Assembly: GCF_003790525.1 (NCBI RefSeq)
Contig: NZ_CP033635.1
DNA: 64,000 nucleotides
From: Escherichia coli
GTDB taxonomy: Bacteria; Pseudomonadota; Gammaproteobacteria; Enterobacterales; Enterobacteriaceae
Direction: 5' to 3' (one strand)
Shown here in pieces: positions 2,047 through 2,479 of this stretch; position 1 is the stretch's first letter; the number at the start of each line of letters is the position of its first letter. The notes under the pieces were generated by a model. The model was not told the origin of the DNA, did not search any database, and saw only the letters and a list, made by a program, of their open reading frames with translations. Position numbers and translations under genes: made by a program.

Positions 2047-2479
2047 AAAAACACCCCTTCTTATGTTTGCTGTCGCGCAGGCTGGAAGCCCGAGGTTTTT
2101 TGTTAATGTGGCGGCAGAGGTAGCCGGACCTTGTAGATACTGCGAAATCTGGCACTGAATCGGTTAACTGTCCAGTCAACGGCTTTTTGTGTGATATGAA
2201 TCACATAAATATAGGGGGTAGAGAGGTAATTGACGTGATGTGCATCACAAAACTCTTGTGTAAAAAAGCAACAAGGCGGCGATTTTCGCTAAAAATGGCA
2301 TTTAAATGTGAGTAATGTCACATTTTTGTTTTGTTAGTTTGTTGAATCTTTGTGATCTGAATCACAAGATATTTTCTTACGGCGTTCACCTGATGTGATC
2401 TGCAGCATGTTATGCCTTCGTCATAAAATCGTTATGTAACTAAGCAACTCATCACCTCTAAAAATTATTCTTCGGTGTT
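2047..2479 (-). promoter_or_regulatory. mtlA promoter region with four near-perfect CRP-type TGTGA-N6-TCACA palindromes (2190-2205, 2234-2249, 2307-2322, 2351-2366)
   Basis: Palindromes read directly from sequence 150-320 bp upstream of the mtlA start; the mtl promoter is known to carry multiple CRP sites. Confidence 0.7.

Follow-up and report, generated by a model that had tools for sequence, protein, structure and literature searches.

Earlier work on the CRP sites of the Escherichia coli mtl control region reportedly includes that of Figge et al. in 1994. Five cAMP-CRP sites were placed in this region by Ramseier & Saier (1995, Microbiology 141:1901), and the five-site region was recently re-tested by EMSA of each site pair and with chromosomal site mutants (Lee et al., NAR 2026; PMC13421365). 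There, the site centres are given as -262.5, -219.5, -175.5, -102.5 and -58.5 from the S1-mapped transcription start site (TSS), corresponding to spacings of 43, 44, 73 and 44 bp. A delta-crp strain did not grow on mannitol, mtl transcription required CRP, and chromosomal single-site replacement identified CRP2, CRP4 and CRP5 as essential for mtl expression; the CRP3 mutant showed only a slight loss of expression, and CRP1 was dispensable and largely unoccupied while CRP2 and CRP3 were intact (PMC13421365). ChIP-seq in ETEC (Haycocks et al., PMC4287617) yielded two CRP peaks with the motifs CRP2+CRP1 and CRP5+CRP4, the latter of which was assigned to mtlA. Among the CRP clones from genomic SELEX (Shimada et al.), the mtlA-yibI spacer ranked second in abundance, and in PhyloScan it came first genome-wide.

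The repressor MtlR has no DNA-binding domain and represses by bridging two CRP dimers that are 43-46 bp apart (PMC13421365). In EMSA, MtlR produced a supershift only at CRP-dimer spacings within this range, with an optimum at 44-45 bp. CRP4+CRP5 is one MtlR docking pair and CRP2+CRP3 the preferred upstream docking pair; the CRP3-CRP4 pair, at 73 bp, did not recruit MtlR unless it was shortened to 44 bp. The EMSA tests of MtlR-CRP-DNA covered the K-12, Salmonella and V. cholerae operators. EII-Mtl loses its phosphate during mannitol transport and in this state keeps MtlR at the membrane; in glucose, HPr in its dephosphorylated form re-establishes repression by competing for MtlR. For the upstream sites, the same authors proposed a phase-dependent architectural role. 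The bridging mechanism is single-source, coming from this one recent paper (PMC13421365).

Two other groups of promoters are close relatives in their organization. The CytR-CRP complexes at deoP2, cdd and tsx-p2 likewise place a repressor on two DNA-bound CRP dimers; however, CytR is itself a DNA binder that sits between CRP sites ~53 bp apart, whereas the mtl pairs are spaced by 44 bp and are read by a protein lacking such a domain. Several far-upstream CRP sites are also found in the malK-malE spacer (four sites) and at pap (remote site at -215), where activation depends on phase or architecture, as for the mtl array. The malK spacing is 34 bp, and this operator gains MtlR binding only once the spacing is lengthened to 44 bp (PMC13421365), whereas the mtl pairs are natively 44 bp apart.

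The CRP array in the mtlA-yibI spacer

The window, i.e. the whole stretch of 64,000 nt analysed here, holds a CRP array upstream of mtlA, inside the 535-bp spacer between mtlA on the minus and yibI on the plus strand, the divergent arrangement that an earlier note made from the sequence had described (Table 1). An 801-bp query (window 1900-2700) was 100% identical to E. coli strain 2016C-3878, and 5404 of 5426 complete E. coli genomes contain it. In the annotation of strain 2016C-3878, matched to the window over this query, mtlD lies downstream of mtlA, past the left window end, and is directly followed by mtlR. An Rfam scan of the same segment (1900-2700) matched no RNA family.

Table 1 Features of the mtlA-yibI region; positions refer to the window.
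Feature	Position	Strand	Sequence and remarks
mtlA	133..2046	-	PTS mannitol transporter IICBA; regulated gene (annotation and ORFs)
mtlA core promoter (putative hexamers)	2139..2174	-	-35 TGGACA (2174..2169), 17-bp spacer, TGc-CAGATT -10 (2151..2146)
Cra/FruR consensus match	2154..2167	+	ACTGAATCGGTTAA; perfect to RSTGAAWCSNTHHW; between mtlA -35 and -10
CRP5	2190..2205	.	TGTGATATGAATCACA; 10/10, 18.2 bits; centre -58.5 from mtlA TSS; promoter-proximal
CRP4	2234..2249	.	CGTGATGTGCATCACA; 9/10 (one mismatch), 17.8 bits; centre -102.5
Conserved block	2256..2274	.	GTGTAAAAAAGCAAC; T7 tract on mtlA strand; middle of the 73-bp CRP3-CRP4 gap
CRP3	2307..2322	.	TGTGAGTAATGTCACA; 10/10, 15.0 bits; centre -175.5
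CRP2	2351..2366	.	TGTGATCTGAATCACA; 10/10, 19.6 bits, top score of the window; centre -219.5
CRP1	2394..2409	.	TGTGATCTGCAGCATG; 7/10, 9.9 bits, rank 18; centre -262.5; weak fifth site
Putative yibI promoter	2481..2509	+	TGGCGA (-35-like, 2481-2486), TATTGT (-10-like, 2504-2509)
yibI	2582..2944	+	DUF3302; divergent neighbour of mtlA (annotation and ORFs)
yibH	2947..4083	+	HlyD family; next after yibI (Pfam)

When the whole 64 kb was searched with the perfect-palindrome string TGTGANNNNNNTCACA (TGTGA-N6-TCACA), only CRP5, CRP3 and CRP2 were returned, and CRP4 was added by allowing mismatches, its sequence being CGTGA-N6-TCACA, one mismatch from consensus (TGTGATGCACATCACG on the mtlA strand). 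These are precisely the three perfect palindromes and the one imperfect palindrome that the earlier note had listed, and the 180 bp within which it had placed them compare with a measured span of 177 bp from CRP5 to CRP2. Dinucleotide shuffles contained on average 0.06 perfect matches, and one shuffle in 100 also reached three; the chance that four random sites in 64,000 bp fall within such a span is ~1e-7 by arithmetic. A symmetrised CRP matrix was further derived from 102 ETEC H10407 ChIP-seq motifs (PMC4287617), with the mtl locus left out. A matrix scan had been suggested in the earlier note as a check, and CRP2, CRP5, CRP4 and CRP3 came out as ranks 1-4 in the 64-kb window, the next match scoring 12.95 bits. 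Four matches reached at least 14 bits, vs 0.44 expected from shuffles. The four strong sites score from about the top 20-30% of the training sites upwards (median ~12.6 bits). The earlier count of four was correct for the strong sites, but overlooked the weak fifth site, CRP1, whose score lies at about the 20th percentile of the training sites. Far from the array, the fifth-best matrix match in the window is TGTGACGGGGCTAACA at 57809-57824, a 16-mer identical to an intragenic CRP ChIP-seq peak inside wecH of ETEC H10407.

From the mtlA ATG through the distal site, the window aligns with K-12 MG1655 without indels, and the published centres therefore map exactly onto the window sites (window centres 2197.5, 2241.5, 2314.5 and 2358.5 for CRP5, CRP4, CRP3 and CRP2). 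The centre-to-centre spacings from CRP5 through CRP1, 44, 73, 44 and 43 bp, equal the published values. All TGTGA/TCACA pentamers are unchanged vs K-12, and the window differs from the published region only by strain-level substitutions, confined to the N6 cores of CRP5, CRP4, CRP3 and CRP1. The array is thus the published five-site control region of mtlADR, and the four palindromes of the earlier note, which had compared them with the reported multi-CRP architecture of mtl, are CRP5, CRP4, CRP3 and CRP2; centres and spacing bear out that comparison. Locus, five sites and spacing are shared with the region as previously studied (Ramseier & Saier 1995; Figge et al. 1994), an experimentally dissected, textbook-level operator that has been known since 1995.

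We are highly confident that this stretch is the operator-promoter of mtlADR, a CRP-dependent promoter of class III that combines five cAMP-CRP sites with MtlR-bridged pairs. In this assignment, the evidence for CRP binding, for MtlR bridging and for the need of the individual sites comes from the literature on K-12 and ETEC, and motifs, ranks, mapping and conservation are contributed by the sequence analysis presented here. A reading of the sequence alone had therefore recovered a real, dense regulatory array; what it overlooked is the 43-44 bp spacing of the pairs, which is functionally decisive for the recruitment of MtlR. The logic of a repressor that has no DNA-binding domain and reads the spacing of CRP dimers was published in 2026 (PMC13421365), and our additions are modest: a strain coordinate map, the fifth site, and the breadth of spacing conservation, including a 63-bp variant in Edwardsiella.

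Core promoter and proposed regulation of mtlA

Transferring the published centres through the gapless K-12 alignment places the mtlA TSS at 2139, which leaves a leader of 93 nt to the ATG (2046). The putative -35 and -10 hexamers are backed by the ungapped conservation of cTgGaca...GTGccAGaTTt in 70 species. A generic sigma-70 scan called neither an mtlA nor a yibI promoter, which for mtlA is expected because its promoter is activator-dependent and has a poor -10. The hexamers listed for the mtlA-yibI spacer in an RpoD-SELEX table (PMC3946193) were not located in the sequence.

Three adjacent pairs of the window lie within the 43-46 bp MtlR range (CRP5-4 with 44 bp, CRP3-2 with 44 bp and CRP2-1 with 43 bp), and the 73-bp gap between CRP4 and CRP3 lies outside it. 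With these pairs and with mtlR encoded, no difference was found between the window locus and the MtlR-CRP-DNA anchoring complex described in PMC13421365. At high cAMP, CRP dimers would occupy CRP5, CRP4, CRP3 and CRP2. CRP5, at -58.5, lies 3 bp off -61.5, the canonical position for class I, and probably makes direct contact with RNA polymerase. The upstream sites, which would be needed as well, probably have an architectural role that depends on helical phase. The spacing of 43-44 bp would orient two CRP dimers such that an MtlR dimer can bridge them, leading to repression of the operon, and in the presence of mannitol dephosphorylated EII-Mtl (MtlA) would keep MtlR at the membrane, thereby lifting repression. 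As for the 73-bp gap, the two 44-bp pairs may form one phased CRP nucleoprotein scaffold.

Apart from the CRP sites, several blocks are conserved. The match at 2154-2167 was scored against the Cra/FruR consensus RSTGAAWCSNTHHW; there are four such matches in the 64 kb vs 0.68 expected, and the columns of this one are kept across species in the ungapped stack. Cra repression of mtl has been reported in the literature, without coordinates, and 2154-2167 is the probable Cra operator referred to. Within the CRP3-CRP4 gap, the GTGTAAAAAAGCAAC block has a Fis-like outline (G...A/T-rich...C) and is also conserved at the equivalent position in the comparative loci L004-L083; Fis is reported in the literature to bind the mtl region, and the block may represent a Fis site or else an intrinsically bent segment. 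On the yibI side, a similar conserved AAGCAAC lies upstream of the gene (about 2443-2449). Other conserved columns in the ungapped stack are a AAAAATAT tract and an AACAAA block by CRP2.

Conservation of the array across species

MtlA residues 1-200 served as the query against species-representative genomes and gave 80 loci across Enterobacterales plus one Tolumonas; 79 loci had usable upstream sequence. A flexible chain search recovered the four-site chain in all 79. Its geometry was 44/73/44 in 71 loci, 44/72/44 in four and 44/74/44 in two, and the two remaining geometries occurred in single loci, 45/74/43 in Tolumonas and 44/63/44 in Edwardsiella hoshinae. The stretch between CRP5 and the ATG differed in length among these loci, with 21 values ranging from 131 to 185 bp. 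The mean information content was 1.77 bits per half-site column vs 0.47 in the N6 cores and 0.62 in the spacers. Constant geometry and half-sites combined with drifting spacers indicate that geometry and half-sites are under selection, which supports the view that the selected trait is probably geometry rather than spacer sequence. Because 44/73/44 is near-invariant in 79 species while the surroundings and the neighbour gene change, the array also appears to be tied to mtlA. The operator comparison in PMC13421365 covers four species; our survey widens it to 79 and adds a fixed inter-pair gap of 72-74 bp (63 bp in Edwardsiella).

In Edwardsiella hoshinae, the inter-pair gap is shorter by one helical turn and both 44-bp pairs are kept, making this locus a natural phasing variant. 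By arithmetic, 73 bp correspond to 6.95 helical turns and 63 bp to 6.0 turns, so that CRP3 and CRP4 of Edwardsiella would stay on the same face of the helix. This fits the phase-dependent architectural role suggested for the upstream sites and appears to go slightly beyond the four-species comparison. A 1-bp insertion in the mtlA/yibI spacer became fixed in an E. coli lineage kept for 1,200 days in stationary phase, with its position not given (PMC7858067); should it fall between paired CRP sites, the spacing read by MtlR would change.

CRP1 behaves differently from the four-site chain. It scores at least 7/10 in 23 of 27 yibI-positive and in 19 of 27 yibI-negative Enterobacteriaceae and in none of 23 species outside the family, and conservation of its TGTGATC half-site is restricted to Enterobacteriaceae. 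Being absent outside the family and similarly frequent within it, CRP1 follows phylogeny, not yibI.

The divergent gene yibI and other readings of the array

The earlier note had also considered that the array may control yibI. In such a bidirectional arrangement, CRP1 and CRP2 at the distal end, perhaps together with MtlR, would also regulate the divergent yibIH operon, and if this were true, a DUF3302/HlyD-family membrane system would respond to cAMP and mannitol in Escherichia/Citrobacter-type genomes. The gene begins 180 bp past CRP1 in the common 535-bp spacer, the distal ETEC peak (CRP2+CRP1) is labelled 'yibI', by proximity only (PMC4287617), and Shimada et al. place both genes downstream of the CRP sequence, divergent pairs often being co-regulated. 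The putative yibI -10 would set CRP1 near -114, roughly in phase, and the high frequency of CRP1 in yibI-positive Enterobacteriaceae points the same way. However, CRP1 is about as frequent without yibI in this family (see above), and the array is intact at the 52 of 79 loci that lack a yibI neighbour as well as at the other 27. The alternative neighbours are a GST, divergent in Salmonella for example, and co-directional genes for a flavodoxin-like, a DUF3053 or a DsbA-like protein. Depending on the genus, CRP2 lies 122, 220-225 or 326-356 bp from the yibI ATG, whereas its position relative to the mtlA promoter does not vary. Variable indels lie between CRP1 and the conserved blocks proximal to yibI, which are deleted in two species. 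A UTI89 promoter-trap insert from a urine-induction sort corresponds to window 2438-2672 and thus carries none of the five CRP sites, its fluorescence being unreported; a second clone from the same sort, with 5.6-fold induction, covers 2253-2733. Our literature search found no report of CRP- or mannitol-dependent yibI expression, and in a paper in which yibH features richly the gene is merely a neutral integration site. Of what may be expected of a divergent pair, yibI shows the shared spacer, but neither a fixed distance nor co-occurrence, and since none of the comparisons (co-occurrence, distance, CRP1 retention) linked the gene to the array, we consider control of yibIH by the array unlikely. 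Their outcome favours mtlA over yibI as the gene to which the array belongs. Even taken jointly, co-control of yibIH by CRP1/CRP2 with MtlR and the two-pair phased scaffold mentioned above appear improbable.

Two further readings concern the array as a whole. It could be a sequence coincidence or the relic of a local duplication with no regulatory role, a view to which the identity of CRP5 and CRP2 at 15 of 16 positions, core included, the reported repeat families and the single shuffle with three perfect palindromes somewhere in 64 kb lend something. Against this, the inter-site spacers have no mutual similarity and no duplicated unit is visible (also noted in PMC13421365), half-sites and spacing are constant over 79 species while cores and spacers drift, and binding and mutational data have been published for the mtl sites, making an array without function hardly conceivable. 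Alternatively, the paired sites might serve a regulator of the CytR or FNR type instead of MtlR, as tandem CRP sites around a co-repressor are a hallmark of CytR promoters such as deoP2. Here, though, the spacing is 44 bp and not the ~53 bp used by CytR, the MtlR supershifts require nothing but the spacing and are transferable to malK (PMC13421365), and neither CytR half-sites (TGCAA or TTGCA) nor an FNR palindrome were found in window 2180-2420; we judge this very improbable. A duplication origin of the pairs was itself examined and rejected, as repeat similarity was limited to the CRP consensus and to short two-copy families out of register.

On the yibI side, the TGGCGA and TATTGT hexamers look like a promoter of yibI. 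They lie at least 72 bp downstream of the last CRP site and inside the UTI89 insert 2438-2672, and both blocks are conserved in 28 yibI-side sequences (the window and the 27 yibI-positive loci). An in-frame ATG at 2480 on the plus strand would lengthen yibI by 34 codons to a 154-aa ORF. The annotated start of the 120-aa yibI at 2582 is favoured by a conserved GAGG preceding this ATG and by indels that shift the longer frame in other species, and the conserved ATGGCGA at 2480 is more likely a promoter element than a start.

A deletion of ~100 bp has removed the yibI-proximal blocks, including the putative promoter, in Pseudescherichia vulneris (L022) and Escherichia sp. ESNIH1 (L036). With this deletion and yibI located 122 bp from CRP2, the gene would be expressed differently in these two species. 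Where the genome is of the Salmonella type, mtlA instead diverges from a yibF-like GST gene, which suggests that the yibIH side of this junction is variable. Past yibH, the matching RefSeq record lists two minus-strand features, a frameshifted helix-turn-helix regulator pseudogene at 4239-5068 and a sigma-factor-like HTH protein at 5259-5765.
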